Numbered from the stretch's first letter, positions 109-30,005 are shown. The stretch: 32,000 bases of DNA from Idiomarina loihiensis L2TR (GCF_000008465.1 NC_006512.1:600001-632000), one strand, 5' to 3'. The notes: a model not told the origin generated them from the sequence alone. Numbers and translations: made by a program.

Positions 109-2984
109 GAAAACCAATGAAACTGATGCTCCGGAACACGCTACTTATTAGTGCTTTGTTTTCACTGAACGCCGTTGCTCAACAAGCTAAGTATGAATTT
201 GAAGGCCCGGTGCGGTTGCAGCAAGTACTGAATGACGCTGAAAGCGAAGGCTTGTTAGCCGACGCATACTGGCCTTTAGTGAGGCTGGTTAAAACCGACG
301 ATAAAGCCGAAATAGAACAACAACGTAACCAGATACTGGCGCAACTGACCGAGCTGGAACAGTATTGGCAGTCGCGCAGAGAAACCGAAAAAGCGCAAAG
401 CGCCGCATTACTGAAAAGCCAGGTAAAAAGCTGGCAACTGGGTAAACAATTATGGGGGCAAATTAGCATTGAAAATGCCCGTACGGAATTAGCCAGCAAC
501 CCCTTACTGCCTGCGGGAGAATATAAGCTTTATGTACCTGAACGTCCGGACTCGGTGCACGTATATGGTGTTGTCAGTACCCCTGGTGATTACCGCTATG
601 CCAGTGGTAAAACCGTAGCCGACTGGCTGAACAGTATAGATGACAGCGAAGGGCTGGGGGCGGCCTATAATAAAAGCCAGGCCGTGCGTATTAGGCAAAA
701 CCAGCAACAAACAGCGGACTGGGCTTATTATAAACAAAGTGACGCCGAGCTTCTGCCCGGCGACATTCTCTGGTTAGGCTTTGAACCTAACCAGTTGCCG
801 CCTAAATTTGAAAGTTTAAATGCGGATATTCGTGACTTACTAATGCATTTTGTTGCTAATGAGTCTGAGCGTAATAGCTTAAACCTGCCAGTTCATGAAG
901 TTGAAAATAACCATGCCACTTCCAGTTGGCATTGGTCACGCAGAGACTTGTCGCCCAGTTATGGTGACTATGGCTCTGTCGGCTTGCTGCAAACGCCTAC
1001 CGCCCGTATGGCCGAAGAAGGGGCTTTGGCTATTACCTACAGCGACATGGAAGAATATCGCCGTTATACGGTAAACCTACAGTTGCTGCCCTGGTTGGAA
1101 ACTACCGCCTTTTATACCGAGTTTCCTAACCGTAAGTACAGTAATGTCCCTGACTTCAGTGGTGACAACGTTTTTGCGGACAAAGGTTTTGATATAAAAG
1201 CCCGTTTATGGGAAGAGAGTTATTGGGTACCGGAAGTGAGTGTGGGCTTTCGTGACTTTGTTGGTACCGGGCTTTTTGATGCCGAGTATATTGTAGCCAA
1301 TAAACGCTTTGGCCCTTTGGATGTGAGCTTAGGTGTAGGTTTTGGTCGCCTGGGTACACGTGATGATTTCACTAACCCCTTTTGCGAGCTGTCTGACGAG
1401 TACTGTGATCGTGAAACAGGTTATGGATCTGGCGGTGGTCAACTGGAGTATGATCGCTGGTTTACCGGTCCTGCTGCCTTATTTGGTGGGGTGGAGTACC
1501 ATACGCCCTGGGAGCCGCTGAGTTTAAAAGTTGAGTACGAAGGCAATGACTATTCTGACGAGCGCGCCGGAGTGCCTATTAAAGTCGACAGTCGCTGGAA
1601 CTTTGGTGCCAATTATCAGGTAACCGACTATTTTGACGTGCAACTGAGTTACGAGCGTGGCAACACCTTTATGTTTAACTTTAGCTTGCGCACTAACTTC
1701 GGCACGCTGAACCAAATAAAGGTAACGCCGGACAAAACCGTACCCACACCGGAAAAACGTAAAGAGTCGTTAGACGATGTGAACTGGTCAGCCATGAACC
1801 TGGCTATGCGTGAGCAGGGGGCTTTTAGTGCGGCGCGTTTTGCCGCAGAAGACGACGAAGTGACCCTATTTGCTTACCACTTGCGGTATCGCGACAGCAG
1901 CGAGGCTTATGACCGGGCTGCACGTATTATGGCGGCCGAGTTACCAGACAGTGTGAAAACCTACAACCTGGTGGATATGACGCTGTTTGATCCGAACGTG
2001 AATACCCGGGTGAATGCCGACAAATTTAAAGACCGCGTGCTGAATAAAGACCCGGGTAAAGCAGTGGATGAAACCGGCGACTTATTTGAGCGCATGGATT
2101 CTCCTGACATGCCTGCGGAAGGCGATGACAGCTGGATGCTGAACCCGAGAAACCAGTTTAGCAACCGTTTTGGTCTGAAGCCGTTTCTTGACCAGAGTTT
2201 TGGTAACCCGGAAACCTTCTATACTTACCAATTGGGTGTTTATGCCTTTGGCCGCCGGTGGCTAACCGATAATGTAGAGTTATTTGGCGAACTGGGCTTT
2301 AACATTGCCACCAACTACGACGACTTCTTGTTCTTAGACGGTGGGGAAGATGCACTGCCTGATGTACGTACGAATATTCGCCGTTATGTGCAAAATGACA
2401 TTTGGTTAGACTCTGCGCAGGTCACTTACCATAAACGTTTAGGCCAGGACTGGTTTGCTATGGCCTATGCCGGTTACTTAGAGCGCATGTTTGGTGGTGT
2501 CGGTGCCGAAGTACTTTACAAACCGGTAGACAGCCGCTGGGCCTTTGGGCTTAGAGCTAACCGGGTAAGGCAGCGTGACTTTAATGGCGGCAGCGGCTTC
2601 TTAGACTATGAAGTGACCACCGGCTTTGCCAGTGTGTATTACCAAATGCCGTGGTTGTCTGATTCGTTATTGCAATTAGACTTTGGTCAGTTTCTGGCGG
2701 GCGACAAAGGTGTTAACGTAACCATGCAAAAACGTTTCGATAGCGGCGTTATAGCAGGGGCTTATGCAGCCTTTACCGATGTTTCGTCGGAAGAATATGG
2801 CGAAGGCAGCTTTACCAAAGGCTTCTTCATTAGTATTCCGTTTGACTTAATGAGCATAAGACCGACACGGGAACGGGTTGGCTTTAGCTGGGTGCCGTTG
2901 TCTCGTAATGGTGGTCAGCAGTTACAACGCCGTACCCGTTTGTACGACTATACTGATGACAGAGCGCCGTTTTACAGCCGTTAA
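105..2984 (+). CDS. yjbH: YjbH-family outer-membrane exopolysaccharide protein with an N-terminal YjbG/GfcC-like domain (apparent fusion)
   Basis: 959-aa ORF with a signal peptide (MKLMLRNTLLISALFSLNAVAQQ). From about residue 285 it shows strings I remember from E. coli YjbH: GSVGLLQTPTARMAEEG, LLPWLETT, LFGGVEYHTPW, LSYERGNTFMF, EEYGEGSFTKG, PLSRNGGQQL. Residues about 30-265 resemble YjbG/GfcC: YWP.., GEYKLYVPERPDSVHVYGVVSTPGDY..GKTVADWL, PGDILWLGF, LNADIRDLL. Confidence 0.85.
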   Translation: MRKPMKLMLRNTLLISALFSLNAVAQQAKYEFEGPVRLQQVLNDAESEGLLADAYWPLVRLVKTDDKAEIEQQRNQILAQLTELEQYWQSRRETEKAQSAALLKSQVKSWQLGKQLWGQISIENARTELASNPLLPAGEYKLYVPERPDSVHVYGVVSTPGDYRYASGKTVADWLNSIDDSEGLGAAYNKSQAVRIRQNQQQTADWAYYKQSDAELLPGDILWLGFEPNQLPPKFESLNADIRDLLMHFVANESERNSLNLPVHEVENNHATSSWHWSRRDLSPSYGDYGSVGLLQTPTARMAEEGALAITYSDMEEYRRYTVNLQLLPWLETTAFYTEFPNRKYSNVPDFSGDNVFADKGFDIKARLWEESYWVPEVSVGFRDFVGTGLFDAEYIVANKRFGPLDVSLGVGFGRLGTRDDFTNPFCELSDEYCDRETGYGSGGGQLEYDRWFTGPAALFGGVEYHTPWEPLSLKVEYEGNDYSDERAGVPIKVDSRWNFGANYQVTDYFDVQLSYERGNTFMFNFSLRTNFGTLNQIKVTPDKTVPTPEKRKESLDDVNWSAMNLAMREQGAFSAARFAAEDDEVTLFAYHLRYRDSSEAYDRAARIMAAELPDSVKTYNLVDMTLFDPNVNTRVNADKFKDRVLNKDPGKAVDETGDLFERMDSPDMPAEGDDSWMLNPRNQFSNRFGLKPFLDQSFGNPETFYTYQLGVYAFGRRWLTDNVELFGELGFNIATNYDDFLFLDGGEDALPDVRTNIRRYVQNDIWLDSAQVTYHKRLGQDWFAMAYAGYLERMFGGVGAEVLYKPVDSRWAFGLRANRVRQRDFNGGSGFLDYEVTTGFASVYYQMPWLSDSLLQLDFGQFLAGDKGVNVTMQKRFDSGVIAGAYAAFTDVSSEEYGEGSFTKGFFISIPFDLMSIRPTRERVGFSWVPLSRNGGQQLQRRTRLYDYTDDRAPFYSR

Positions 2985-3006
2985 CTGAGTAAAAGGACAC
3001 AAAGCT

Positions 3007-4932
3007 TTGAATCTTTTTAAGGTACTAATGCAGTTACCGCGTAATGTTAAGCGCGGTATTGGCCTGGGCGTCGATATCTTGTCGATTGCTATTGCCATGG
3101 TGTTTTCGTACTTATTAAGTTTTGAAGCGGTAATGCCGTTGCGGGTGTCGCAGTGGTTATTGCTGGGGGCTATAGTCCTTTGCGTAACCTTGCTGGTGTT
3201 TATCCGCATGGGTTTGTACCGCGCAGTGGTGCGTTACGTTGGTTTTAAGGTACTGAGCCTGGTCTTTTTTACCGTGTTATTAAGCGGTGCCTTATTGGTG
3301 CTGGGTGCTTTATGGATGGGCATTGCTTTGCCGGTAACCGCCGTTGTTAACTATGTGCTGGTAGCCTTTTTATTGACTGGAGGCAGCCGTTTAATTGTGC
3401 GTGAAGGCTACCAGCGCGCTATGAGTCGCCAAAAAGACCGGGTGATGATTTATGGTGCAGGCTCTGCCGGACGGCAGTTAGCGCAGGCGCTGGCTAATGG
3501 TGACGAATTTCACCCGGTAATGTTTATTGACGACGATTCGGGTTTGCAGAATACCTCGGTACTGGGGCTAAAAGTAACCGGCCCCGAGGGTATTGCCTGT
3601 GCGGTTCGCGAGCTGGATGTTCAGCGCATTTTACTGGCTTTGCCCAGCACGCTGCGCTCGCGCCGTCGCCAAATTCTGGATAGCCTGGAGCAGTTGCCGG
3701 TAAAAGTACAAACCGTGCCGGGTATGTCTGACATGGTTAATGGCGATATGTCGATTGACCAGCTGCAGGATGTGCGGGTAGAAGACTTGCTAGGGCGTGA
3801 CCCTGTGACTCCGGCACCGCAGTTAATGGAAAAGCACATTACCGGACAAACCGTATTGGTTACCGGGGCAGGGGGCTCAATTGGTTCTGAATTGTGCCGC
3901 CAAATATTGCAACAACGCCCCAAGGTACTGGTGCTGTATGAGTTGTCTGAGTTTGCTTTGTACGCCATTGAACGCGAATTAACGCAAATTTGTCAGCATC
4001 AGGGCATTGGCGCGGAAATTATTCCGGTAATAGGTACGGTACAGCGACGCAACCGCATTGAAACCGTGCTGAAGACCTTTGCGGTTGATACCGTATACCA
4101 CGCCGCCGCCTATAAGCATGTGCCTTTAGTTGAATACAATATGGTAGAGGGCGTGCGCAACAATGTGTTTGGCACCTGGCATACAGCGGAAGCCGCCATT
4201 TCTGCCGGTGTTAAGCAGTTCGTGTTAATTTCCACCGACAAAGCCGTGCGACCCACCAATGTTATGGGCACCACCAAGCGCTTGTCGGAGCTGGTGCTGC
4301 AGGGGCTGGCGCAACGGCAGCGCGGAACGCGTTTTTCAATGGTGCGTTTTGGTAATGTACTGGGGTCTTCCGGTTCGGTTGTGCCTTTGTTTAAGGAGCA
4401 GATTGAACACGGCGGTCCGGTAACGGTAACGCACCCCGATATTACCCGCTTTTTTATGACCATACCCGAGGCTGCACAGTTAGTGATTCAGGCTGGCACC
4501 ATGGGGCATTCCGGCTCGGTGTTTGTGCTGGATATGGGCGACTCGGTTAAAATTGTCGATTTAGCCCGCAAGATGATCCGCCTGTCGGGGCTTGAAGAGA
4601 AAACCGAGAAGAACCCGCACGGTGACATTGCTATAGAGTTTAGTGGCTTGCGGCCGGGCGAGAAGTTATACGAAGAACTGTTAATTGGTGACAATGTAGA
4701 AGCCAGTGACCACCCGCGTATATTGCGTGCCAATGAGCAGTCGCTAAGCTGGGACGAAATGGAGAAACTGCTGGGGCTGTTGGATGACGCCTGCCAGCGG
4801 TTTGCCATTGACGAGCTGCGCCAGTTATTGCTGGACGCTCCAACCGGCTACGCCCCGCTGGACGACCATATTTGTGATGTTATTTGGAATAAACACCGCA
4901 CCTGTAGTGATGATGAAACCGACGTTGCCTGA
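3007..4932 (+). CDS. Membrane-anchored polysaccharide biosynthesis protein, nucleotide-sugar 4,6-dehydratase/epimerase (CapD/WbpM/PglF-like)
   Basis: 641-aa ORF with about 4 N-terminal hydrophobic helices followed by two Rossmann regions (IYGAGSAGRQLA; VTGAGGSIGSEL) and a YKHVPLVE motif typical of extended SDR dehydratases. The track start at 3007 is TTG. ATG at 3028 is an alternative start. Confidence 0.8.
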   Translation: MNLFKVLMQLPRNVKRGIGLGVDILSIAIAMVFSYLLSFEAVMPLRVSQWLLLGAIVLCVTLLVFIRMGLYRAVVRYVGFKVLSLVFFTVLLSGALLVLGALWMGIALPVTAVVNYVLVAFLLTGGSRLIVREGYQRAMSRQKDRVMIYGAGSAGRQLAQALANGDEFHPVMFIDDDSGLQNTSVLGLKVTGPEGIACAVRELDVQRILLALPSTLRSRRRQILDSLEQLPVKVQTVPGMSDMVNGDMSIDQLQDVRVEDLLGRDPVTPAPQLMEKHITGQTVLVTGAGGSIGSELCRQILQQRPKVLVLYELSEFALYAIERELTQICQHQGIGAEIIPVIGTVQRRNRIETVLKTFAVDTVYHAAAYKHVPLVEYNMVEGVRNNVFGTWHTAEAAISAGVKQFVLISTDKAVRPTNVMGTTKRLSELVLQGLAQRQRGTRFSMVRFGNVLGSSGSVVPLFKEQIEHGGPVTVTHPDITRFFMTIPEAAQLVIQAGTMGHSGSVFVLDMGDSVKIVDLARKMIRLSGLEEKTEKNPHGDIAIEFSGLRPGEKLYEELLIGDNVEASDHPRILRANEQSLSWDEMEKLLGLLDDACQRFAIDELRQLLLDAPTGYAPLDDHICDVIWNKHRTCSDDETDVA

Positions 4933-4939
4933 TGTATAA

Positions 4940-6421
4940 ATGGACGAAACAATGATAAAAAACGGACCTTACCTAGCTTTAGATACCAGCTACCAAAAGC
5001 TGTCAGTGGACGAACTGCTCGAAACCGCTGGCAAACGCTTACCCGAACACTTCGATGATTACCGCCAGCAATTGTGCCGCGGTGAATACCGCAACATAAG
5101 CGAAGACCGCCCGGTAACTCATGTGTTGAGCCGCTCGGTACACGCGGTAGCAAAACAAAGCAACCGTAAAACCCGCTTTGTGGATACCGTACAAAAGCTG
5201 CGCTCTGGCCGTCGGCTGGGCAGTACCGGAAAACCTATTACCGACGTGGTGAACATTGGTGTGGGCGGATCTGATCTGGGGCCGCAGATGGGCGCTTTTG
5301 CCCTGCGTGAATTTGCTAACGACGCCGCTTTACATAATTTGCAGGTACATTTTGTGTCCTCTATGGATGGTGGCCAGCTGTATGCCGTGTTGCCTATTGT
5401 TGACCCCGAAACCACCTTATTTATTATTTCGTCTAAGTCGTTTGGCACCGTAGATACCTTTGCCAATGTGGATACCGTACGCAAATGGATTGAGCCTGAG
5501 TTGACTCAGGAGCAGTGGCTGGAAAACCATGTAATAGGTGTGTCGGCTAATGCACAAGGTATGACGGACTACGGTATACCACCGGCGCAGCAGTTTACCT
5601 TTGGTGATGGCGTTGGCGGGCGTTTTTCCTTGTGGTCGGCGTTAGGTTTGAGCATAGCGTTAACCACTGGTATTCGACCCTTTGAGCGTATGCTGGAAGG
5701 CGCTAAAGCCATGGACGAGCACTTTTTAGATGCGCCGTTGAACGAGAACTTGCCGGTTTTGTTGGCGCTTTATGGTGTGTATAACCGCGAGCAACTGGGC
5801 ATTAATAACTTAGCTATTTTGCCGTACGACGGTCGCTTGCGTATGTTGCCGAACTACCTGCAGCAGCTGGATATGGAAAGTAACGGTAAGCAGTACACTG
5901 CCGAGAATGAGGCCATTGATTACCCCACCGGACCGATTATTTGGGGCGGTTTTGGACCTAACGGACAACACGCGTTTTTCCAGCATTTGCACCAGGGTTA
6001 TGACCAGTTTACTGCGGACTTTGTCACCGTGCTTAAACGTGAAGCGCCGGGCTTTTCTGATGCCACCCGCAGTGGTCTGGCCGAGCAGCAGCGTTTGGCT
6101 GTAGCCAACTGTCTGGCGCACCGCCGCCTAATGTCGGACGGCAGCGAAAATGCCGATTCACCCAGTGACCATTATCCGGGCGGGCACCCGTCCAACTTGT
6201 TGATAATGGACGAACTGACCCCCGAGAGCTTTGGCGCTTTAATAGCCGCCTACGAGCACAAAGTATTTACCCAGGGCGTTATTTGGGGCTTGAACAGCTT
6301 TGACCAGCCCGGCGTAGAGAAGGGCAAGAAAATTGCCATGGACGTACTGCGCGTACTGGACGGCGAAAGCGACGAGTCCTTCGACGAGAGCACCGACGCC
6401 GTTATTCAGCGGATGCGGTGA
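4940..6421 (+). CDS. pgi: Glucose-6-phosphate isomerase
   Basis: 493-aa ORF carrying phosphoglucose isomerase motifs (IGVGGSDLGP, FIISSKSFGT.ET, GGRFSLWSA.GL, LQQLDMESNGK, FGPNGQHAFFQ.LHQG). Confidence 0.85.
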   Translation: MDETMIKNGPYLALDTSYQKLSVDELLETAGKRLPEHFDDYRQQLCRGEYRNISEDRPVTHVLSRSVHAVAKQSNRKTRFVDTVQKLRSGRRLGSTGKPITDVVNIGVGGSDLGPQMGAFALREFANDAALHNLQVHFVSSMDGGQLYAVLPIVDPETTLFIISSKSFGTVDTFANVDTVRKWIEPELTQEQWLENHVIGVSANAQGMTDYGIPPAQQFTFGDGVGGRFSLWSALGLSIALTTGIRPFERMLEGAKAMDEHFLDAPLNENLPVLLALYGVYNREQLGINNLAILPYDGRLRMLPNYLQQLDMESNGKQYTAENEAIDYPTGPIIWGGFGPNGQHAFFQHLHQGYDQFTADFVTVLKREAPGFSDATRSGLAEQQRLAVANCLAHRRLMSDGSENADSPSDHYPGGHPSNLLIMDELTPESFGALIAAYEHKVFTQGVIWGLNSFDQPGVEKGKKIAMDVLRVLDGESDESFDESTDAVIQRMR

Positions 6422-6430
6422 TTTGGTGAT

Positions 6431-6486
6431 GTAGCCTGACATTTATGTCAGGTTCTGCACCCCACCTGACATAAATGTCAGGCTAC
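6431..6486. repeat. REPIN-like double palindrome, copy 1 (A-variant arm / A-variant arm)
   Basis: GTAGCCTGACATTTATGTCAGG, then a 12-nt spacer, then CCTGACATAAATGTCAGGCTAC. The two arms are reverse complements of each other, and each arm is itself a hairpin. Confidence 0.9.
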
Positions 6487-6493
6487 GTACATA

Positions 6494-6544
6494 TTGTAAC
6501 CGTATTCAGTTACAATTGATAATGTAACTATATTAAGTTACATT
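6494..6544. repeat. Left 51-bp inverted-repeat end of the two-gene cassette, made of two TGTAAC-N8-GTTACA palindromes
   Basis: Palindromes lie at 6494-6515 (TTGTAAC-cgtattca-GTTACAA) and 6521-6544 (AATGTAAC-tatattaa-GTTACATT). By hand alignment the whole 51 nt matches the reverse complement of 8003-8053 at 42/51 positions without gaps. An extra direct half-site, TTGATAGTGTAAC, is at 6544-6556. Confidence 0.8.
6516..6544 (+). promoter_or_regulatory. Possible sigma70 promoter of the cassette (TTGATA-17-TACATT) overlapped by a palindromic operator
   Basis: TTGATA is at 6516-6521 and TACATT at 6539-6544, with a 17-nt spacer, about 30 nt upstream of the ATG at 6573. The palindrome at 6521-6544 covers the spacer and the -10. 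This is a motif-level guess only. Confidence 0.3.
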
Positions 6545-6572
6545 TGATAGTGTAACTCTACGGGAAAACAAC

Positions 6573-7208
6573 ATGAAAAACTCTATGATTGGTGTAATAA
6601 CTGGCGATATCGTTAATTCGCGGCAAATTCCTGTTGAGGAATACGATAGTATGCTTTATCGGCTGCACCAGACGCTTGAGTCCTTTAGTGAGCGTTATCA
6701 GATGCATTTTGATGTATTTCGTGGCGACGAGTTTCAATTACTGTTAAAGCGGCCTGAAAAAGTCATCTATTTAGCAACAATTATTCGTTTATCGCTTAAA
6801 TCGGGCTCCACCAACATTGATGTCCGACAGAGTTTGTCTGTAGGTGACAGTAACGAATTGCGAGATGACGTGAAGAGTTCTACCGGAGAGGCTTTCGTTT
6901 TATCAGGGCAGAACTTAAATAAAATGAAATCTGAGTTATTAATCTTTGACTCTACAATCGAACTCCTCAAACATCACCTCGGGTCGACCATTGAATTACT
7001 GGATGCACATTTAAGTTCTATAACAAAAACAGAAGCTTACGTATTGATTAATTACCTGGGGGACCCCGAAGTTTCGCATGCTGAACTGGCGAAAGAGATA
7101 GGTAAAAGTAGACCTAATACGACAAAGATGCTGAATTCAGCTCGTTACAATAGCGTTTTGAAGTACTTGTACTATGCCGAGAACCTGATAATAGAGGCTC
7201 GGGGATAA
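6573..7208 (+). CDS. SatD-like protein with an N-terminal palm (nucleotidyl cyclase/GGDEF-like) domain and a C-terminal helix-turn-helix
   Basis: 211-aa ORF. The N-terminus has GVITGDIVNSR (a strand plus acidic residue, as in class III cyclases/GGDEF) and HFDVFRGDEFQLLL (a GGDEF-like hairpin). The C-terminus has SHAELAKEIGKSRPNTTKMLNSA, an HTH-like stretch. Pairing with a DUF3307-like gene fits the satD/satC arrangement as I remember it. Confidence 0.6.
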   Translation: MKNSMIGVITGDIVNSRQIPVEEYDSMLYRLHQTLESFSERYQMHFDVFRGDEFQLLLKRPEKVIYLATIIRLSLKSGSTNIDVRQSLSVGDSNELRDDVKSSTGEAFVLSGQNLNKMKSELLIFDSTIELLKHHLGSTIELLDAHLSSITKTEAYVLINYLGDPEVSHAELAKEIGKSRPNTTKMLNSARYNSVLKYLYYAENLIIEARG

Positions 7209-7209
7209 A

Positions 7210-8013
7210 ATGAATGACTATTTAATTTTGATGCTGTTACTGCTGGCGCACATAGCCGGTGATTTTTATTGTCAGCCGGATTATTTGGTTGGTAAAAAGT
7301 TATCATCAAGCTTCCGAAAGCGACTGTATGCTAACGCGATTCATGCTTTTATTCATGCTGGCTTGGTCGTGCTTCTGCTGTTGATACCGAAAATGTCTTG
7401 GGATGATTTATTGGTAACGACAGCTGTTATAGGCGTGACTCATTTTATTATCGATTCACTTAAGTCAGTAGCTGTTATCAAATGGGTTGATACTTGGGAA
7501 GAAAACGAACAGCCGGAGGAGGGTAGTAAACCAAGGAAAAGGAACCGTGCTTTTTATTGGTTCGTATTAGATCAACTGGCTCATTTGAGCGTTATAATTC
7601 TAATTTGGCTTGGGTTATTCCAACCTTTTTCCTCTATTGTCGAATATTTGTCAGTTGAATACCTTGTTGTTGTCATTTCTTATCTTCTTGTTTTGAAGCC
7701 GACCTCTGTATTAGTCAGTCTTATTTTAAAATTGTGCGAGACGCGAGAGAAAAAAGATAGAACTCTGGATGAGGCTGGTGCGGTCATTGGCTATATAGAA
7801 CGTTTGGTTATCCTTACTCTGATATTAGTCGGGCAATATACCGCAATTGGTTTTGTGATAGCTGCTAAGTCGGTATTGCGCTTCGGCGAGAATAAAGGGA
7901 AGGACACGAAGCTAAATGAATATGTGCTTCTGGGGACCTTGGCAAGTTTTGCTATAGTTTTATTTGTCGGCATTGCTACCACTGAAGTATTAGAAATACT
8001 TAAATGTAACTAA
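7210..8013 (+). CDS. Polytopic membrane protein, DUF3307 (SatC)-like
   Basis: 267-aa ORF that starts 1 nt after the upstream stop, suggesting translational coupling. It has about seven hydrophobic segments. His/Asp motifs sit within the helices (LLLAHIAGDFYCQ, IHAFIHAG, VTHFIIDS, LDQLAHL). A highly charged loop reads EENEQPEEGSKPRKRNR. Confidence 0.6.
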   Translation: MNDYLILMLLLLAHIAGDFYCQPDYLVGKKLSSSFRKRLYANAIHAFIHAGLVVLLLLIPKMSWDDLLVTTAVIGVTHFIIDSLKSVAVIKWVDTWEENEQPEEGSKPRKRNRAFYWFVLDQLAHLSVIILIWLGLFQPFSSIVEYLSVEYLVVVISYLLVLKPTSVLVSLILKLCETREKKDRTLDEAGAVIGYIERLVILTLILVGQYTAIGFVIAAKSVLRFGENKGKDTKLNEYVLLGTLASFAIVLFVGIATTEVLEILKCN

Positions 8014-8053
8014 ATATGGTTACGTTACCACTTGTAACCGAATACAGTTACTT
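8003..8053. repeat. Right 51-bp inverted-repeat end of the cassette
   Basis: Palindromes lie at 8003-8026 (AATGTAAC-taaatatg-GTTACGTT, overlapping the stop codon at 8011-8013) and 8032-8053 (TTGTAAC-cgaataca-GTTACTT). The reverse complement aligns 42/51 with 6494-6544. Confidence 0.8.
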
Positions 8054-8056
8054 TGG

Positions 8057-8072
8057 AACCAAGCGCTTGGTT
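8057..8072. repeat. Perfect 16-bp palindrome AACCAAGCGCTTGGTT
   Basis: Read directly from the sequence. It lies between the cassette's right end and REPIN copy 2. No T-tract follows, so it is at best a weak terminator. Confidence 0.6.
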
Positions 8073-8074
8073 AT

Positions 8075-8130
8075 GTAGCCTGACGTTTACGTCAGGTTCG
8101 ATATCCCACCTGACATAAATGTCAGGCTAC
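8075..8130. repeat. REPIN-like double palindrome, copy 2 (G-variant arm / A-variant arm)
   Basis: GTAGCCTGACGTTTACGTCAGG, then a 12-nt spacer, then CCTGACATAAATGTCAGGCTAC. The left arm (8075-8096) is identical to the reconstructed empty IS target. Confidence 0.9.
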
Positions 8131-8167
8131 GCAAGCCTTGTAACTGAATAGAACAACGGAATGACTC

Positions 8168-8902
8168 ATGCTTAAAGAAGTAAAGGATATAGCCCACGAC
8201 GCTGGCGCTGCCATTATGGATATTTACCAAAGCAACGACTTTGATGTGCAGAAAAAGGCCGATGACAGTCCGCTGACCAAAGCAGATTTAGCGGCGCATA
8301 ACATCATTTGTGAGGGTTTGCGTGCGCTGGATATTCAGTACCCGGTTATTTCGGAAGAGTCGTCAGACATTAGTTGGGCGCAGCGCAAGCACTGGTGCCG
8401 CTATTGGCTGGTTGACCCGTTGGACGGCACCAAGGAATTTATTAAGCGAAATGACGAATTCACCGTGAACATTGCCCTGATAGAAAAGGGCGTGCCCATT
8501 TTAGGTGTGGTGTATGCTCCGGCGTTAGACGCCATGTATACCGGCGAGCGTGACCGCGGTGCGTTTTTAAACGACAAAGCGATTTCGGTTGCCACGCAGG
8601 AACCTGAAGCTTTGCGCGTTGTAGGCTCGCGCTCACACCCCTCACAGGAAACGACCGACTGGTTAGATGCTCAGGGCAAATCCTACGAGATGCTGGCGGT
8701 AGGCAGTTCACTGAAGTTTTGCCTGGTAGCCGAAGGTAAAGCCGACATTTATCCCCGCTTAAGCCCCACCAGCGAGTGGGACACCGCCGCAGCCCATGCG
8801 GTATTAAGTGCAGCAGGTGGGGACGTACTGACCCTTAACGGGGAACCGCTGCTGTACAACCAAAAAGCAGACTACCTCAACCCGCACTTTATTGCCCGGT
8901 GA
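8168..8902 (+). CDS. cysQ: 3'(2'),5'-bisphosphate nucleotidase
   Basis: 244-aa ORF with inositol-monophosphatase-family motifs (ISEES, WLVDPLDGTKEF, EWDTAAAHAV) and a length typical of CysQ. Confidence 0.85.
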   Translation: MLKEVKDIAHDAGAAIMDIYQSNDFDVQKKADDSPLTKADLAAHNIICEGLRALDIQYPVISEESSDISWAQRKHWCRYWLVDPLDGTKEFIKRNDEFTVNIALIEKGVPILGVVYAPALDAMYTGERDRGAFLNDKAISVATQEPEALRVVGSRSHPSQETTDWLDAQGKSYEMLAVGSSLKFCLVAEGKADIYPRLSPTSEWDTAAAHAVLSAAGGDVLTLNGEPLLYNQKADYLNPHFIAR

Positions 8903-8910
8903 TTGGTGTT

Positions 8911-8919
8911 GTAGCCTGA
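8911..8919. repeat. Left stub (GTAGCCTGA) of REPIN copy 3, which is split by the IS
   Basis: Joining 8911-8919 to 10302-10348 rebuilds a complete REPIN: GTAGCCTGA+CGTTTACGTCAGG, then a spacer, then CCTGACATGAATGTCAGGCTAC. Confidence 0.85.
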
Positions 8920-9004
8920 TGAGATGGTCCCCTCCCTCCTAAGCGGCATCGCAATGTGCCAATATAGAGGTTCAAGCTTCTATAGAACAGAGTGGAGAGG
9001 ACCA

Positions 9005-10036
9005 ATGGCTATTGTAAACAGAATTGCCCTGGATTTGGCAAAGGATTTTATTCAGGTTTTGGCGCTGGATGAAAATGAGCAGGAAGTTTTTAATAAAAAA
9101 CTGCGCAGCAATAAAGTGTTAGCGAAGCTGGCGACGCTGAGCCGTACGGATGACTGTGAAGTAGCGGTTGAGTCCTGCGGCATGAGTCATTACTGGCGCC
9201 GCGAATGTGAAAAGCTGGGTTATAAAACGGTGGCGTTGCCACCGCGTTTCGTCAAAGCGTACCTGCAGGGTGAGAAGAACGATGCGAATGACGCCCGGGC
9301 AATAGCCGAGGCGGCATCACGACCCAACCGTCAGACGGTCAGGCTGAAAAGCATTGAGCAGCAGGACTTAGCATTGATGGTCAATCAGCGGGAAGGCTTC
9401 GTGCAGACGAGAACGCAGTTCTCGAATAGGTTGCGGGGGCAACTGGCCGAATACGGCATTCTTTTACCGAAGCGAGTCGGTACGATATTACAGAGAGTAC
9501 CGGAGGTACTGGAAGACGACAGCAATGCGCTGACGCTTCAGTCACGGGACCTCATCAACCGGCTCTATCAGATGCTGCGAGCGGTGGATGAAGAAGTTAA
9601 AGCGCTGGATAAGCACTTAGCGACACAGGCCGAAAGGAATGAAGACAGTCAGCGGCTGATGACCCTGCCGGGTATCGGACCGATAACAGCGACCTCGCTG
9701 CTGGCACTGATAGGTGATGTGAGTGAATTTAAACGCGGCCGCAACCTGTCGGAATACCTGGGACTGGTACCACGGCAAAACAGCAGTGGCGGTAAAGACC
9801 GTTTAGGCGGTATTACCAAAAAAGGGAACACCAAACTCAGGACACTGCTGGTGCATGGCGCCCGCTCGGCACTGCGGGTGGCACAACAGCGCCACGACAG
9901 GCTGAGCCTCTGGGCACAGGATGTCGCTAAACGCAGAGGCAACAACGTTGCAGCGGTGGCACTGGCTAACAAGCACGCCCGGATAATCTGGGCGATGTTA
10001 AAGAATAAAGAAGATTACCGGATGACTGCTGCTTAA
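9005..10036 (+). CDS. IS110-family DEDD transposase/recombinase
   Basis: Starts MAIVNRIALDLAKDF.. (the N-terminal DEDD RuvC-like domain begins ..GIDLAK-like). The C-terminal Transposase_20-like region reads LMTLPGIGPITATSLLALIGDVSEFKRGRNLSEYLGLVPRQNSSGGKDRLGGITKKGN. A GGAGAGG RBS precedes the ATG at 9005. The track start at 8924 falls inside the terminal repeat. Confidence 0.9.
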   Translation: MAIVNRIALDLAKDFIQVLALDENEQEVFNKKLRSNKVLAKLATLSRTDDCEVAVESCGMSHYWRRECEKLGYKTVALPPRFVKAYLQGEKNDANDARAIAEAASRPNRQTVRLKSIEQQDLALMVNQREGFVQTRTQFSNRLRGQLAEYGILLPKRVGTILQRVPEVLEDDSNALTLQSRDLINRLYQMLRAVDEEVKALDKHLATQAERNEDSQRLMTLPGIGPITATSLLALIGDVSEFKRGRNLSEYLGLVPRQNSSGGKDRLGGITKKGNTKLRTLLVHGARSALRVAQQRHDRLSLWAQDVAKRRGNNVAAVALANKHARIIWAMLKNKEDYRMTAA

Positions 10037-10282
10037 CAGCATTCAGTAAAAGAGCACAGCGAAGGTTCATTCCTTCCGGGAGTTGCAAACGTCAACAGGA
10101 TGGTAAAATAGGGTAAACCGACGACAACTGAGACTGTTGAACGTCCGTACATAAAGTACGTTAGCCTGATAAGCCAGTTGTCGTGCGGAGTTCATCCAGG
10201 CCAGGTGCGCAAAGCGCGCACCATAAACAGGCCGTATATATGCGAGCGCCCCGACATTTACCACGAGTTGCCGTTGCAAAAC
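10037..10282 (+). ncRNA. Candidate bridge/seek RNA of IS copy A
   Basis: This non-coding stretch lies between the transposase stop and the right subterminal repeat. There is a 10-bp perfect stem (10121-10130/10175-10184) and an inner hairpin (10146-10150/10156-10160). Together they enclose an internal loop carrying AACGTC (10140-10145, antisense to target GACGTT) and TAGCCTGA (10162-10169, sense copy of the target left half). A second hairpin/loop (10192-10242) carries TCATC (antisense to core+left end, GATGA) and ATATATG (sense copy of right end+core). The exact RNA ends are unknown. Confidence 0.5.
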
Positions 10283-10301
10283 GGGAGGGGACCATATATG
10301 A
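10274..10301 (+). promoter_or_regulatory. Right-end half of a putative circle-junction promoter (TTGCAA-17-TA|TGAT)
   Basis: TTGCAA lies at 10274-10279 with a 17-nt spacer. Joining the right end, the TGA core and the left end would create TATGAT as a -10 directed toward the transposase gene. In the integrated state the hexamer is TATGAC. Confidence 0.35.
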
Positions 10302-10348
10302 CGTTTACGTCAGGAGCGATGCCCCACCTGACATGAATGTCAGGCTAC
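10299..10348. repeat. Right remainder of REPIN copy 3
   Basis: TGACGTTTACGTCAGG, then spacer agcgatgcccca, then CCTGACATGAATGTCAGGCTAC. Confidence 0.85.
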
Positions 10349-10434: not shown

Positions 10435-10788
10435 ATGAAACTACTTTTAGCTTTTGCAACGACGGCGCTATTGGCTGGTTGCAGCACAGCCCAGTCGGCA
10501 ACAGACACTCCGGTCACTATGGCCGATATTAACGAACTGATTGGTAAGCCAGAGGCGCAAAGTATAGATAGCTGTAAGGTACTGCCTGTGGGCAAAAGAG
10601 CTTGCGGTGGCCCAGCGGGTTATGTGGTTTACAGTAGTGAGACCATCACTGATGAGAGTAAATTGCTTAACGCTGTGCATCGCTACAATGAGAAGGCCGA
10701 AAAAGATGCTCAAACAGGCTATTCTACCTGCCAGTTTATTCCCGAGCCCGAACCTCAGTTAAAAGCTGGCGTGTGCTGGATACCCTAG
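10435..10788 (+). CDS. Putative lipoprotein of unknown function
   Basis: The signal peptide has a lipobox (MKLLLAFATTALLAGC). AGGTG lies 8 nt upstream of the ATG at 10435. Several Cys residues appear conserved. No family was recognised. Confidence 0.55.
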   Translation: MKLLLAFATTALLAGCSTAQSATDTPVTMADINELIGKPEAQSIDSCKVLPVGKRACGGPAGYVVYSSETITDESKLLNAVHRYNEKAEKDAQTGYSTCQFIPEPEPQLKAGVCWIP

Positions 10789-10853
10789 TGGACAAATACT
10801 AATCACTTAATTAGACTAACTAGTATCAATATTTAAAAGTAAGCGGAGGCTTG

Positions 10854-11060
10854 ATGGACAAGATTGATCGTGCTTATTATCCAGAGCTCGACAAGCTTCT
10901 GTGGGATACCAATACGAAATACTTAACGCCTAAAGAAGCATTGGATATATATGAAACTCGCTGGCGTTTTGTCGAAGAAAGGCAATTGCTTAAGCGCGAG
11001 CGTCAGCTAATTGATAAATTGGCAAAAGATGCAGGCGGTTTTCTCCCAAGTGCAGCGTAA
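10854..11060 (+). CDS. Small hypothetical protein, possible partner/antitoxin of the downstream nucleotidyltransferase
   Basis: 68-aa ORF with a GGAGG RBS at 10845-10849. Its stop is 3-6 nt before the next start. It looks helical and charged, and I see no clear HTH. Confidence 0.45.
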   Translation: MDKIDRAYYPELDKLLWDTNTKYLTPKEALDIYETRWRFVEERQLLKRERQLIDKLAKDAGGFLPSAA

Positions 11061-11066
11061 AAATTG

Positions 11067-11771
11067 ATGAGCACTTACCAGCGTAAACACCACCAGTTAA
11101 TTCAGCGTTGCCTGGATAATTTTAATAGCCACTACTTAACGGAACACGCAATTCTTTTTGGTGGCGGCACTCGGATAGCTCTGGAGCTTAGCGAGTATCG
11201 TGAATCAGTTGACATTGATTTTCTTTGTAGAGATAAAAAATCATTTCGAGCGGTAAGAGAACAGGTAACGAATAGAACGCTAGGTGAGCTGGTAAAAGAG
11301 GATTTTATTTATTCTCGCGATATTTCGTTTGATAGATATGGTGTGCGCACTTTTCTGGATGTTGATGGTGTGAGAATTAAGCTTGAGTTTGTAGCTTTTG
11401 ACAACTACGCGTTAGAGCAAGGAGATGACGCAGATTTATTTAATGTGCCTTTTATTGACCGTACTTCATGTTTTATCACCAAGCTTCTGGCAAATGCTGA
11501 TAGGTGGATGCAGAAACCTTATAAAGACATATTTGATTTGATTGTTATGTTTGAAAACTGGGGGGAGATACCACCCGAGGCGTACGCGGAAGCTCACACC
11601 CATTACGGTGTTCAAGTTGTAAATAATGGCTTAAAACGGGCACTCCAAAACCTCCGGAATAATCACATTGCTTACAGAGAAGAAGCCGAAGGTATGGGAA
11701 TACAAAGAGAATATTTTGATAATGTTGTGTTCCCAGGCTCTGAGCGATTATTGTCTAAGCTTCTAAATTAA
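11067..11771 (+). CDS. AbiEii/DUF1814-like Pol-beta-superfamily nucleotidyltransferase (type IV TA / abortive-infection toxin family)
   Basis: The motif FGGGTRIALELSEYRESVDIDFL matches the G[GS]-x(n)-D-x-D NTase signature and the GGT..R.S.DIDF pattern I remember for AbiEii. The protein is about 234 aa and the DNA context is AT-rich. Confidence 0.6.
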   Translation: MSTYQRKHHQLIQRCLDNFNSHYLTEHAILFGGGTRIALELSEYRESVDIDFLCRDKKSFRAVREQVTNRTLGELVKEDFIYSRDISFDRYGVRTFLDVDGVRIKLEFVAFDNYALEQGDDADLFNVPFIDRTSCFITKLLANADRWMQKPYKDIFDLIVMFENWGEIPPEAYAEAHTHYGVQVVNNGLKRALQNLRNNHIAYREEAEGMGIQREYFDNVVFPGSERLLSKLLN

Positions 11772-13313
<1,542 letters not shown>

Positions 13314-15703: not shown

Positions 15704-15759
15704 GTAGCCTGACATTTATGTCAGGTGAGATACCGTTCCTGACGTAAACGTCAGGCTAC
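15704..15759. repeat. REPIN-like double palindrome, copy 4 (A-variant arm / G-variant arm)
   Basis: GTAGCCTGACATTTATGTCAGG, then spacer tgagataccgtt, then CCTGACGTAAACGTCAGGCTAC. The right arm (15738-15759) is identical to the empty IS target in the opposite orientation. Confidence 0.9.
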
Positions 15760-28575: not shown

Positions 28576-28626
28576 GTAGCCTGGCATTTATGTCAGGTGA
28601 GATGCTGATTCCTGACGTAAACGTCA
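28576..28626. repeat. REPIN copy 5, left part (A-variant arm with one G substitution, spacer, and start of the G-variant arm up to TCA)
   Basis: GTAGCCTGGCATTTATGTCAGG, then spacer tgagatgctgatt, then CCTGACGTAAACGTCA. The arm is completed by GGCTAC at 30009-30014, on the far side of the IS. Confidence 0.85.
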
Positions 28627-28888: not shown

Positions 28889-29920
28889 TTAAGCAGCAGT
28901 CATCCGGTAATCTTCTTTATTCTTTAACATCGCCCAGATTATCCGGGCGTGCTTGTTAGCCAGTGCCACCGCTGCAACGTTGTTGCCTCTGCGTTTAGCG
29001 ACATCCTGTGCCCAGAGGCTCAGCCTGTCGTGGCGCTGTTGTGCCACCCGCAGTGCCGAGCGGGCGCCATGCACCAGCAGTGTCCTGAGTTTGGTGTTCC
29101 CTTTTTTGGTAATACCGCCTAAACGGTCTTTACCGCCACTGCTGTTTTGCCGTGGTACCAGTCCCAGGTATTCCGACAGGTTGCGGCCGCGTTTAAATTC
29201 ACTCACATCACCTATCAGTGCCAGCAGCGAGGTCGCTGTTATCGGTCCGATACCCGGCAGGGTCATCAGCCGCTGACTGTCTTCATTCCTTTCGGCCTGT
29301 GTCGCTAAGTGCTTATCCAGCGCTTTAACTTCTTCATCCACCGCTCGCAGCATCTGATAGAGCCGGTTGATGAGGTCCCGTGACTGAAGCGTCAGCGCAT
29401 TGCTGTCGTCTTCCAGTACCTCCGGTACTCTCTGTAATATCGTACCGACTCGCTTCGGTAAAAGAATGCCGTATTCGGCCAGTTGCCCCCGCAACCTATT
29501 CGAGAACTGCGTTCTCGTCTGCACGAAGCCTTCCCGCTGATTGACCATCAATGCTAAGTCCTGCTGCTCAATGCTTTTCAGCCTGACCGTCTGACGGTTG
29601 GGTCGTGATGCCGCCTCGGCTATTGCCCGGGCGTCATTCGCATCGTTCTTCTCACCCTGCAGGTACGCTTTGACGAAACGCGGTGGCAACGCCACCGTTT
29701 TATAACCCAGCTTTTCACATTCGCGGCGCCAGTAATGACTCATGCCGCAGGACTCAACCGCTACTTCACAGTCATCCGTACGGCTCAGCGTCGCCAGCTT
29801 CGCTAACACTTTATTGCTGCGCAGTTTTTTATTAAAAACTTCCTGCTCATTTTCATCCAGCGCCAAAACCTGAATAAAATCCTTTGCCAAATCCAGGGCA
29901 ATTCTGTTTACAATAGCCAT
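28889..29920 (-). CDS. IS110-family DEDD transposase/recombinase (copy B)
   Basis: The translation is identical to that of 9005-10036. Confidence 0.9.
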   Translation of the reverse strand: MAIVNRIALDLAKDFIQVLALDENEQEVFNKKLRSNKVLAKLATLSRTDDCEVAVESCGMSHYWRRECEKLGYKTVALPPRFVKAYLQGEKNDANDARAIAEAASRPNRQTVRLKSIEQQDLALMVNQREGFVQTRTQFSNRLRGQLAEYGILLPKRVGTILQRVPEVLEDDSNALTLQSRDLINRLYQMLRAVDEEVKALDKHLATQAERNEDSQRLMTLPGIGPITATSLLALIGDVSEFKRGRNLSEYLGLVPRQNSSGGKDRLGGITKKGNTKLRTLLVHGARSALRVAQQRHDRLSLWAQDVAKRRGNNVAAVALANKHARIIWAMLKNKEDYRMTAA

Positions 29921-30005
29921 TGGTCCTCTCCACTCTGTTCTATAGAAGCTTGAACCTCTATATTGGCACATTGCGATGCCGCTTAGGAGGGAGGGGACCA
30001 TCTCA

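Follow-up and report, generated by a model that had tools for sequence, protein, structure and literature searches.

Gene content and base composition of the pgi-cysQ region

The present analysis concerns two adjacent genes of Idiomarina loihiensis L2TR that lie between pgi and cysQ in a 32,000-nt stretch of the genome (NC_006512.1, 600001-632000; this whole stretch is termed the window, and all positions are counted from its first nucleotide), see Table 1. Six proteins of the window were compared with those of I. loihiensis GSL 199 (CP005964.1, about 599-616 kb), and all six proved 100% identical. Their products belong to the SatD and DUF3307 families, named from the sat operon of Streptococcus mutans, for which the gene pair is the norm: The 211-residue product of the first gene exceeds the threshold of Pfam SatD (PF16264; 31.8 bits at a cut-off of 29, E 1.5e-7), the profile covering only residues 9-89 of this protein, and the 267-residue product of the second gene exceeds that of Pfam DUF3307 (PF11750; 125.1 bits at a cut-off of 23, residues 6-153). 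The same assignment, a spacing of 1 nt between the two genes and several peptide motifs had been given in the original prediction, which was made from the nucleotide sequence alone; both reading frames bear out the spacing, the quoted motifs are present in their translations, and the AT-rich character of about 1.6 kb between pgi and cysQ agrees with the calculated guanine-plus-cytosine (GC) content. In 300-nt windows, the latter is 0.38-0.43 at 6450-8250 and 0.50-0.57 in the pgi and cysQ flanks; as a whole, the cassette has a GC content of 0.393 compared with 0.486 for the remainder of the window. An Rfam scan of the window found no family.

The inverted repeats are arrays of palindromic boxes

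The gene pair had been described as bounded by 51-nt imperfect inverted repeats, and this observation was reproduced: Segment 6494-6544 matches the reverse complement of 8003-8053 at 42 of 51 positions, whereas the highest score of 54 control pairs (120-nt segments at a distance of 1.5 kb from each other) did not exceed 27 of 51, and a repeat search returned the inverted pair 6496-6545/8002-8051 at 86%. Each arm of the repeat, however, resolves into two palindromes of the form TGTAAC-N8-GTTACA at 28-bp spacing, a point absent from the original prediction. Owing to the symmetry of each unit, the two arms can be read as a direct repeat just as well as an inverted one. Matches to the box with no more than one mismatch are confined in the 32-kb window to the four boxes U1, U2, D1 and D2; the degenerate third box U3 spans the ribosome-binding region of satD, and a good third box is found in the same register in I. 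seosinensis and Methylophaga.

The putative promoter of the pair is interlocked with the upstream boxes: Its -35 element sits in the spacer between U1 and U2, and its -10 element is formed by the right half of U2. In the aligned upstream regions of four species (three besides I. loihiensis), a -35-like TTGnnn is likewise found between boxes 1 and 2 and a -10-like TACATT in box 2. Since the promoter-like elements are embedded in the array, the boxes overlap the putative promoter.

Table 1. Positions of the genes, predicted boxes and repeats in the pgi-cysQ region of the window.
Feature	Position	Strand	Remarks
pgi	4940-6421	+	left flank of the variable slot
REPIN copy 1	6431-6486		two 23-nt arms, 100% complementary, 10 nt between them
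SatD box U1 (predicted), TGTAACCGTATTCAGTTACA	6495-6514		palindromic half-sites perfect
Putative promoter	6516-6544	+	TTGATA (-35), 17-nt spacer, TACATT (-10); consensus match and conservation
SatD box U2 (predicted), TGTAACTATATTAAGTTACA	6523-6542		28 bp downstream of U1
Degenerate third box U3	6551-6570		left half TGTAAC intact, right half with 3 mismatches; 28 bp past U2
satD-like gene, 211 residues	6573-7208	+	palm 1-128 (GD 11-12, RGDEFQ 50-55, R85); winged helix-turn-helix 130-210
DUF3307 gene, 267 residues	7210-8013	+	polytopic membrane protein (Pfam match, model, alignment)
SatD box D1 (predicted)	8005-8024		1 mismatch; DUF3307 stop codon inside
SatD box D2 (predicted)	8033-8052		1 mismatch; 28 bp past D1
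REPIN copy 2	8075-8130		hairpin pair between box D2 and cysQ
Partial box (TGTAACTGAATA...)	8139-8151		offset from REPIN copy 2 as that of U1 from REPIN copy 1
cysQ-type 3'(2'),5'-bisphosphate nucleotidase gene	8168-8902	+	right flank of the variable slot

Box arrays upstream of satD in other organisms

Arrays of TGTAAC-N8-GTTACA boxes upstream of satD are shared by genomes with otherwise unrelated genomic contexts: With the same 28-bp period, I. seosinensis and Methylophaga nitratireducenticrescens possess three boxes each, and a metagenome-assembled genome (MAG) of the Idiomarinaceae and an Idiomarina relative from a stromatolite metagenome (contig L103) possess two each; Alteromonas pelagimontana carries an N10 variant of the box at this place. 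The comparison was extended to additional SatD loci, of which 80 came from metagenomes and 8 from viral contigs. Owing to the variable N8 spacers, ungapped 24-nt matching of the 5' and 3' flanks of 70 loci lacked sensitivity and was replaced by a half-site/periodicity detector that demands an exact 5+5 palindrome and a second copy 27-30 bp away. The detector was positive for 68 of 89 satD upstream regions compared with 2 of 356 control windows of the same loci; the arrays of 57 loci have a period of 28 bp and those of 14 loci one of 29 bp, and the number of boxes per array ranges from 2 to 5, three being the commonest.

The half-site sequence varies by lineage in step with the recognition helix of the SatD helix-turn-helix (HTH): GTAAC is found with R-x-NTTK-x-LN, TATTAC with NQAAVSRRQKR, TATCG/TATCTG with KSQSxISEALKR, TATTAG with TQGNISQGLKR, TTAGCC with ATVSKSLKAS, and GGCCGG with RRTISNRLQAA. 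Mainly because of this covariation, SatD itself is predicted to bind the boxes. As judged by sequence comparison, the C-terminal winged HTH of SatD would bind a row of 18-20-bp palindromes at 28-bp spacing over its own promoter, and the boxes are regarded as candidate SatD operators that overlap the satD promoter. Regularly spaced, repeated sites at an autoregulated promoter are also found in the OR/OL operators of the lambda CI repressor and in the centromere-operator arrays of the plasmid proteins ParR and omega. For a 28-29-bp period of 18-20-bp palindromes in conjunction with a cyclase-fold partner domain, we know of no described counterpart. In our view, the gene pair is probably not a transposon but a self-repressing module of two genes that is autonomous and horizontally mobile, a reading that is given somewhat better than even chances.

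The box architecture also exists apart from satD: The pattern TGTAAC-N8-GTTAC-N10-GTAAC-N8-GTTAC occurs exactly in 67 IMG/VR viral contigs (L190-L256, e.g. L192 7934-7980) that encode neither SatD nor DUF3307, where a rough estimate of the chance expectation is far below one match. Most of these contigs belong to one phage family, in which the pattern has a cytosine-5 DNA methyltransferase gene on one side and a small gene on the other; a different regulator appears to use the box architecture there. In the 166-kb viral contig L249 (914-960), a near-identical AT-rich double box (TTGTAACCGTATTGGGTTACAAATCAAAATGTAACTTAATACAGTTAC) is situated directly upstream of a sequence that by appearance resembles the 5' end of a tRNA gene.

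The variable slot between pgi and cysQ

The space between pgi and cysQ holds different cargo in related genomes. A second complete I. loihiensis genome (CP085212; CysQ 95% identical) contains HipB-HipA in this slot, and a widespread I. loihiensis-type lineage (CysQ 89% identical; at least 23 contigs) contains an S8 peptidase, an ORF_2_N protein and a HipB remnant; the S8 peptidase and the ORF_2_N protein are also present in a PL1-037-type contig. In L103, the slot comprises HipBA, followed by a degenerate cysC and the SatD-DUF3307 cassette. I. fontislapidosi has the gene order pgi-cysC-cysQ, and in I. aquatica cysQ directly follows pgi. In all slot variants compared, the variable DNA stops about 16 nt before the cysQ start codon. 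A clean, exact within-species empty site was not found in a search via CysQ: The identical CysQ protein led only to the same genome, and genomes with a slightly diverged CysQ displayed other cargo. The accessory nature of the cassette follows from this variability of the slot, in keeping with the islet-like status proposed originally: Sister genomes of the I. loihiensis group harbor other cargo, and other Idiomarina harbor cysC or none. Sequence comparison thus points to the module being accessory cargo of a strain-variable slot. As an observation in its own right, the cysC (adenosine 5'-phosphosulfate kinase) gene upstream of the cassette in L103 (3879-4130) is cut to a 71-codon remnant with internal deletions, the frame of which ends at a TAA inside the first SatD box. 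A role of cysQ as functional partner of the pair was considered and rejected, as four of six proteobacterial loci examined are devoid of cysQ.

The repeats are themselves flanked by REPIN copies 1 and 2, as noted in the original prediction. Further copies are located at 15704-15759, 10327 and 28576, so that the window includes eight REPIN arms at five places (chance expectation 0), which identifies the element as a paired-hairpin intergenic repeat; relatives are present in sister genomes, too. REPIN copy 1 is a host genome repeat outside the SatD-DUF3307 module. REPIN copy 2 is assigned to a later insertion, because the orthologous position in the related contig L103 does not contain it: The DNA between D2 and cysQ gained REPIN copy 2 and the partial box once the lineages of the window and L103 had diverged, which accounts for an 83-nt direct repeat (6423-6505/8067-8149, 83% identical) that includes the partial box. 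The alternative that the TTGTAAC following REPIN copy 2 forms part of the REPIN consensus was rejected, since the other REPIN copies lack it.

The boxes over the 3' end of the DUF3307 gene and the question of mobility

A 3' array of two boxes over the DUF3307 stop codon was encountered solely in the window, L103 and Methylophaga, i.e. in 3 of about 70 loci; none was detected in I. seosinensis, the Idiomarinaceae MAG, Alteromonas and about 65 other loci. Both 3' boxes of Methylophaga are perfect, and its genomic site is unrelated. The 3' boxes most likely constitute a second SatD-binding array for looping or for a roadblock, i.e. for tighter control; the distal array of the three lineages could support looping as in cooperative multi-site operators. 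Alternatively, they may be the leftover of the module's excision from a donor; less probably, they mark a boundary of the cassette.

The original prediction had taken the repeats for the termini of a possibly mobile cassette. In its explicit form, this explanation holds that the arrays are terminal inverted repeats of a non-autonomous element, recognized by a recombinase or transposase acting in trans or by SatD, which would move a unit of 1.56 kb. Arrays are indeed situated at both edges of the foreign DNA: In L103, no more than about 15 nt separate the insert from the cysC remnant at one end and about 8 nt from the conserved pre-cysQ sequence at the other, Methylophaga exhibits the same two-ended layout at its unrelated site beside an IS110 remnant, and the DUF3307 stop codon falls within the first 3' box in all three lineages; low GC content, variable locations and the occurrence on plasmids (see below) are also in line with a moving unit. 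However, each box is internally symmetric in the manner of an operator-type palindrome, the 5' array is a family-wide promoter feature that covaries with the HTH, and a 3' array is missing from about 67 of the 70 loci whose 3' flank is long enough. Moreover, no direct repeat that would point to a target-site duplication adjoins the arrays of L103 or Methylophaga, the cassette contains no transposase, neither a second copy nor solo arrays were found within the 32-kb window, and the 83-nt direct repeat represents later REPIN-associated DNA that is missing from L103. Movement of the unit by its arrays is hence considered very unlikely, and the interpretation as mobile-cassette termini is not upheld.

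Structural model and conservation of SatD

According to its AlphaFold model (predicted local distance difference test (pLDDT) 91, predicted template modeling score 0.90), SatD consists of two domains. Residues 1-128 form a beta-alpha-beta-beta-alpha-beta core in which D12 ends strand 1 and R50-G51-D52 are placed in the hairpin of strands 2 and 3; residues 130-210 make up a winged helix that matches ArsR/MarR-type regulators (E 0.002). A Foldseek search against the PDB gave 59 matches at E<=1e-3, and the 50 of them that were listed are mostly class III adenylyl/guanylyl cyclases: The best match is Ma1120 (E 1.5e-5, root mean square deviation 3.1 Å over 128 columns), and others are Rv1900c (5e-5), Cya2 (1e-4) and CyaC, with target-normalized template modeling (TM) scores up to 0.63 and a match probability of 1.0. 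Among these 50 listed matches are also one Cas10 (Csm) chain, one Pycsar cUMP synthase and the GGDEF protein PA3702 (3bre, rank 50).

In 35 aligned homologues, the most distant of which share 25% identity, the residues G11, D12, S16, R50, G51, D52, F54, Q55, R85, A107, S111 and G112 are invariant. Pfam SatD also matches 34 of the 35 aligned homologues, and Pfam matches to many HTH families were obtained, covering most of the members in this alignment. The layout of a GD...RGDEFQ domain with a C-terminal HTH, as present in the I. loihiensis protein, is also that of nearly all of the best 150 of 4,005 representatives of the family (50% identity, E<=1e-3), which have about 200-230 residues and both domains. 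Model, Foldseek matches and alignment thus agree with the palm-type fold and C-terminal HTH that had been suggested from the nucleotide sequence, and the acidic residues of the palm are conserved.

The palm fold is common to SatD, class III cyclases such as Ma1120 and Rv1900c, and GGDEF proteins. In SatD, an aspartate at the end of strand 1 is followed by a G-D-E-F hairpin, and D12 and D52 occupy the topological positions of the metal-binding aspartates of the cyclases, a correspondence at the level of topology. The model supports the view that the N-terminal domain of SatD is a class III cyclase/GGDEF-type palm with both putative metal ligands kept. In contrast to class III cyclases, the SatD domain comprises about 128 residues (156-231 in the matched cyclase chains), shows no significant sequence match to them, does not conserve the transition-state Asn/Arg, and has its palm fused to a predicted operator-binding winged helix. 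The hairpin reads RGDEF instead of GG[DE]EF and hence does not classify SatD with the GGDEF diguanylate cyclases; in a comparison by HHalign with an approximate adenylyl cyclase C1 sequence, RGDEF was paired with the LGDCY hairpin, which was not significant. As far as its sequence is concerned, SatD is neither a class III cyclase nor a GGDEF protein.

Structural model and conservation of the DUF3307 protein

The DUF3307 protein was modeled with a pLDDT of 88 and about eight hydrophobic helices. Its N-terminal half, which is covered by Pfam, contains the invariant residues H14, D18, F19, Q22, H45, H78, D82, K85, D121, Q122 and H125; a second conserved module, C-terminal and outside the Pfam profile, is made up of G190, I193, G194, E197, R198, G214, A219, K220, R224, E237, Y238, G242 and S246. 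The four histidines and three aspartates of the first module resemble the site of a metal-dependent hydrolase. By the positive-inside rule, the Lys/Arg-rich loops 21-34 and 176-183 would be cytoplasmic, and the His/Asp cluster would consequently be positioned at the cytoplasmic leaflet of the membrane.

Linkage, neighborhood and plasmid occurrence of the pair

In about 75 of 85 loci, the DUF3307 gene is located directly downstream of satD on the same strand, overlapping it or only a few nt apart. The exceptions are phage-like contigs with SatD alone (L093 3531-4760, L094 5010-5651, L095, L096, L098 and L172), which encode a lysozyme and BspA-type leucine-rich repeat proteins; in several of them, the SatD reading frame is fused to BspA-like repeats while the GD and RGDSF motifs are kept. 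No homologues were found in GenBank phages.

The genomic surroundings of the pair are not conserved: The 125 proteins whose genes lie no farther than 1.1 kb from about 60 loci include no family with more than six occurrences. In the window (3007-6421) and in the unrelated Idiomarinaceae MAG (L100 60-5867), the pair stands at the downstream end of a capsule/polysaccharide cluster (CapD-type Polysacc_synt_2, glycosyltransferases); this common neighborhood may be a coincidence or a shared variable region. The GC content of the cassette is below that of the host DNA in seven of eight hosts examined.

The pair is also borne by small plasmids. Plasmid pEC34A (NC_019077.1; 3,770 bp, ColE1-type, mobilizable), known from Escherichia coli and Klebsiella pneumoniae, carries a SatD-like/DUF3307 pair (1792-3481) as its sole cargo besides Rop and MobA. 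Six more Klebsiella plasmids are like it, five of 3,770 bp and one of 4,424 bp. Palindromes of the form AACC...GGTT precede the pair of pEC34A, and the HTH of its SatD-like protein matches the YlxM/p13 family (E 1.7e-6); the cassette was not found in complete E. coli genomes. A further pair is placed among recombinase and toxin-antitoxin genes on a 10-kb plasmid of Pseudomonas fragi.

Comparison with anti-phage defense systems

The succession of a cyclase-fold protein and a membrane protein in a horizontally travelling two-gene unit is a layout that the pair has in common with Pycsar, Panoptes (mCpol) and CBASS with transmembrane effectors. A signalling/defense cassette of this kind had been considered in the original prediction. 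In its explicit form, a cyclic-nucleotide anti-phage defense in which SatD would produce a signal, either on infection or constitutively as a guard, and DUF3307 would be the membrane-disrupting effector, this explanation would be in accordance with the cyclase fold and intact, putatively metal-binding acids of SatD, with the Pycsar cyclase and Cas10 among the fold matches, with the membrane protein as partner, with the SatD-only homologues of phage-like contigs and with the pair being the sole cargo of a small plasmid; toxin-antitoxin and abortive-infection genes are, furthermore, found nearby (AbiEii at 11064-11771; HipBA and BrnT/A in the sister strain). However, PADLOC models returned nothing beyond noise (CasR with E 0.0015 on the HTH, Csx18 with E 0.0008 on the membrane protein), and an enrichment of defense genes next to SatD loci was not observed, with about five matches to defense models (E<=1e-10) among the 125 immediate neighbors of about 60 loci and a predominance of housekeeping genes. 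The DUF3307 protein has no recognizable nucleotide-sensing domain, i.e. no detectable cNMP-binding, CARF, SAVED or 2TM-beta features, and SatD, a predicted DNA-binding autorepressor, is fused to an operator-binding HTH, which the known defense cyclases are not known to possess. A literature search on SatD, DUF3307 and the Pfam/InterPro accessions found no such system, and nothing on fold, operators, partner dependence or function of the two families. Positive evidence for the defense interpretation was not obtained, and we regard it as unlikely.

Proposed function of the module and points at variance with it

The self-repressing module favored here may be pictured as follows: Dimers of SatD would bind the boxes cooperatively and switch off the operon; the palm domain would bind Mg-nucleoside triphosphate (NTP) and might either make or sense a nucleotide that alters DNA binding, or act on the partner; and DUF3307, as a tightly controlled membrane effector, would be the output of the module. 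The module would then behave like a toxin-antitoxin or abortive-infection pair composed of a repressor-enzyme and a potentially harmful membrane protein. HipBA and AbiE are likewise translationally coupled bicistronic pairs with an HTH in the first product and palindromic operators over the promoter; they are likewise found at scattered positions and on plasmids, and HipBA occupies the very same slot in the sister strain. In contrast to both, the proteins of the SatD-DUF3307 pair are larger, the HTH protein includes an enzyme-like palm, and its partner, a polytopic membrane protein, bears the signature of a metal site. The likeness to toxin-antitoxin modules is one of architecture only.

A more far-reaching variant assumes that SatD is an active cyclase or transferase whose catalytic dimers assemble on the 28-bp array, i.e. 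in a DNA-scaffolded form, that its product controls DUF3307 as a membrane metallo-effector, and that the whole is a mobile conflict module for phage or plasmid exclusion or for addiction, the two-ended arrays of Idiomarina and Methylophaga marking the portable unit; this variant is judged improbable.

Several results weigh against the proposed self-repressing module or leave parts of it unaccounted for. With respect to SatD, the palm fold was recovered, but no Pfam match to Guanylate_cyc (PF00211) or GGDEF (PF00990) was obtained at E<=1 in the 35 SatD members, and a profile search of the PDB from SatD reached Ma1120 with E 0.4 and DosC with E 0.23 only, which is not significant. The position that we take to be that of the cyclase transition-state Arg is Q113 in this SatD and differs among family members (R, H, K, Q, E, A); no conserved equivalent of the transition-state Asn was seen, and the helix that would carry both residues is conserved in part only. 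Catalysis by SatD is uncertain because this Asn/Arg pair is not conserved. With respect to DUF3307, a Foldseek search of the PDB gave no relative (best E 0.46, TM score <0.3), and because of this lack the label "hydrolase" rests on residue chemistry, not on homology. The covariation of half-site and recognition helix is correlative, comparative evidence, and the operator model does not explain the role of the 3' array. Finally, most neighbors of the pair are housekeeping genes (among them RsmE and the commonest ones, HMGL-like, PGM, MscL and TsaD), and these, like the location of satCDE of S. mutans in the ffh operon, are as compatible with a physiological role as with a selfish one.

In such a physiological role, the pair would be an ordinary operon in which SatD, as a nucleotide-sensing transcription factor, tunes an envelope or lipid-homeostasis enzyme of the DUF3307 type, and the horizontal gain would be that of a useful gene pair. 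Most family members reside among housekeeping genes, and satCDE of S. mutans is co-transcribed with ffh/ylxM, its expression being raised 2-3-fold by fructose (PMC12077213). The position of the pair behind capsule or polysaccharide genes at the two Idiomarinaceae loci would also be compatible, as would the N-terminal domain of DUF3307, which on its own matches a PHROG of phage "moron" membrane proteins. On the other hand, a conserved neighbor is absent, which is unusual for a component of a pathway; a 3.8-kb plasmid carries nothing but the pair as cargo, strains differ in whether they possess it, and HipBA can take its place at one slot. The multi-site autorepression array, too, suggests a product that must stay tightly off. 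The physiological explanation is possible but rather doubtful.

Other elements in the vicinity

An IS110-family element follows just after cysQ (8911-10348; transposase reading frame 8924-10036; ends GGTCCCCTCCC ... GGGAGGGGACC). The first hairpin of a REPIN is interrupted by it, with GTAGCCTGA preceding and TGACGTTTACGTCAGG following the element. The same junction is met at a second copy in the window (reading frame 28889-30001 on the minus strand) beside the REPIN at 28576, and also in I. abyssalis and another I. loihiensis genome (L011 7483-7709; L258 4737-5394). As the same junction recurs, the IS110 element appears to target REPIN hairpins. A second islet of low GC content (0.38-0.44) extends over 10650-11850 and contains two reading frames: The one at 11064-11771 encodes a nucleotidyltransferase toxin of the AbiEii type (Pfam E 3.6e-23), and the small one preceding it (10851-11060) has no Pfam match. 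The corresponding region of CP085212 contains BrnT/BrnA instead.

Implications

The results illustrate that two genes can be enclosed by a long "inverted repeat" that represents an operator array and not a transposon end. SatD and DUF3307 are widespread (about 4,000 clusters at 50% identity) and have no assigned function; the present comparison offers three testable handles. The first is the cyclase-type fold, which is modeled with confidence and in which the putative metal ligands are conserved; the second is the predicted DNA target, a tandem array of operators that can be derived from the recognition helix of each protein; and the third is the behavior of the pair as a self-contained mobile unit, which makes up the sole cargo of a small plasmid and is swapped with HipBA at one slot. 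Plasmid pEC34A provides a convenient experimental system for the pair. If the palm domain proved to be active, SatD would be an enzyme of the cyclase fold that is coupled directly with its own promoter and with a membrane protein lacking fold relatives in the PDB.

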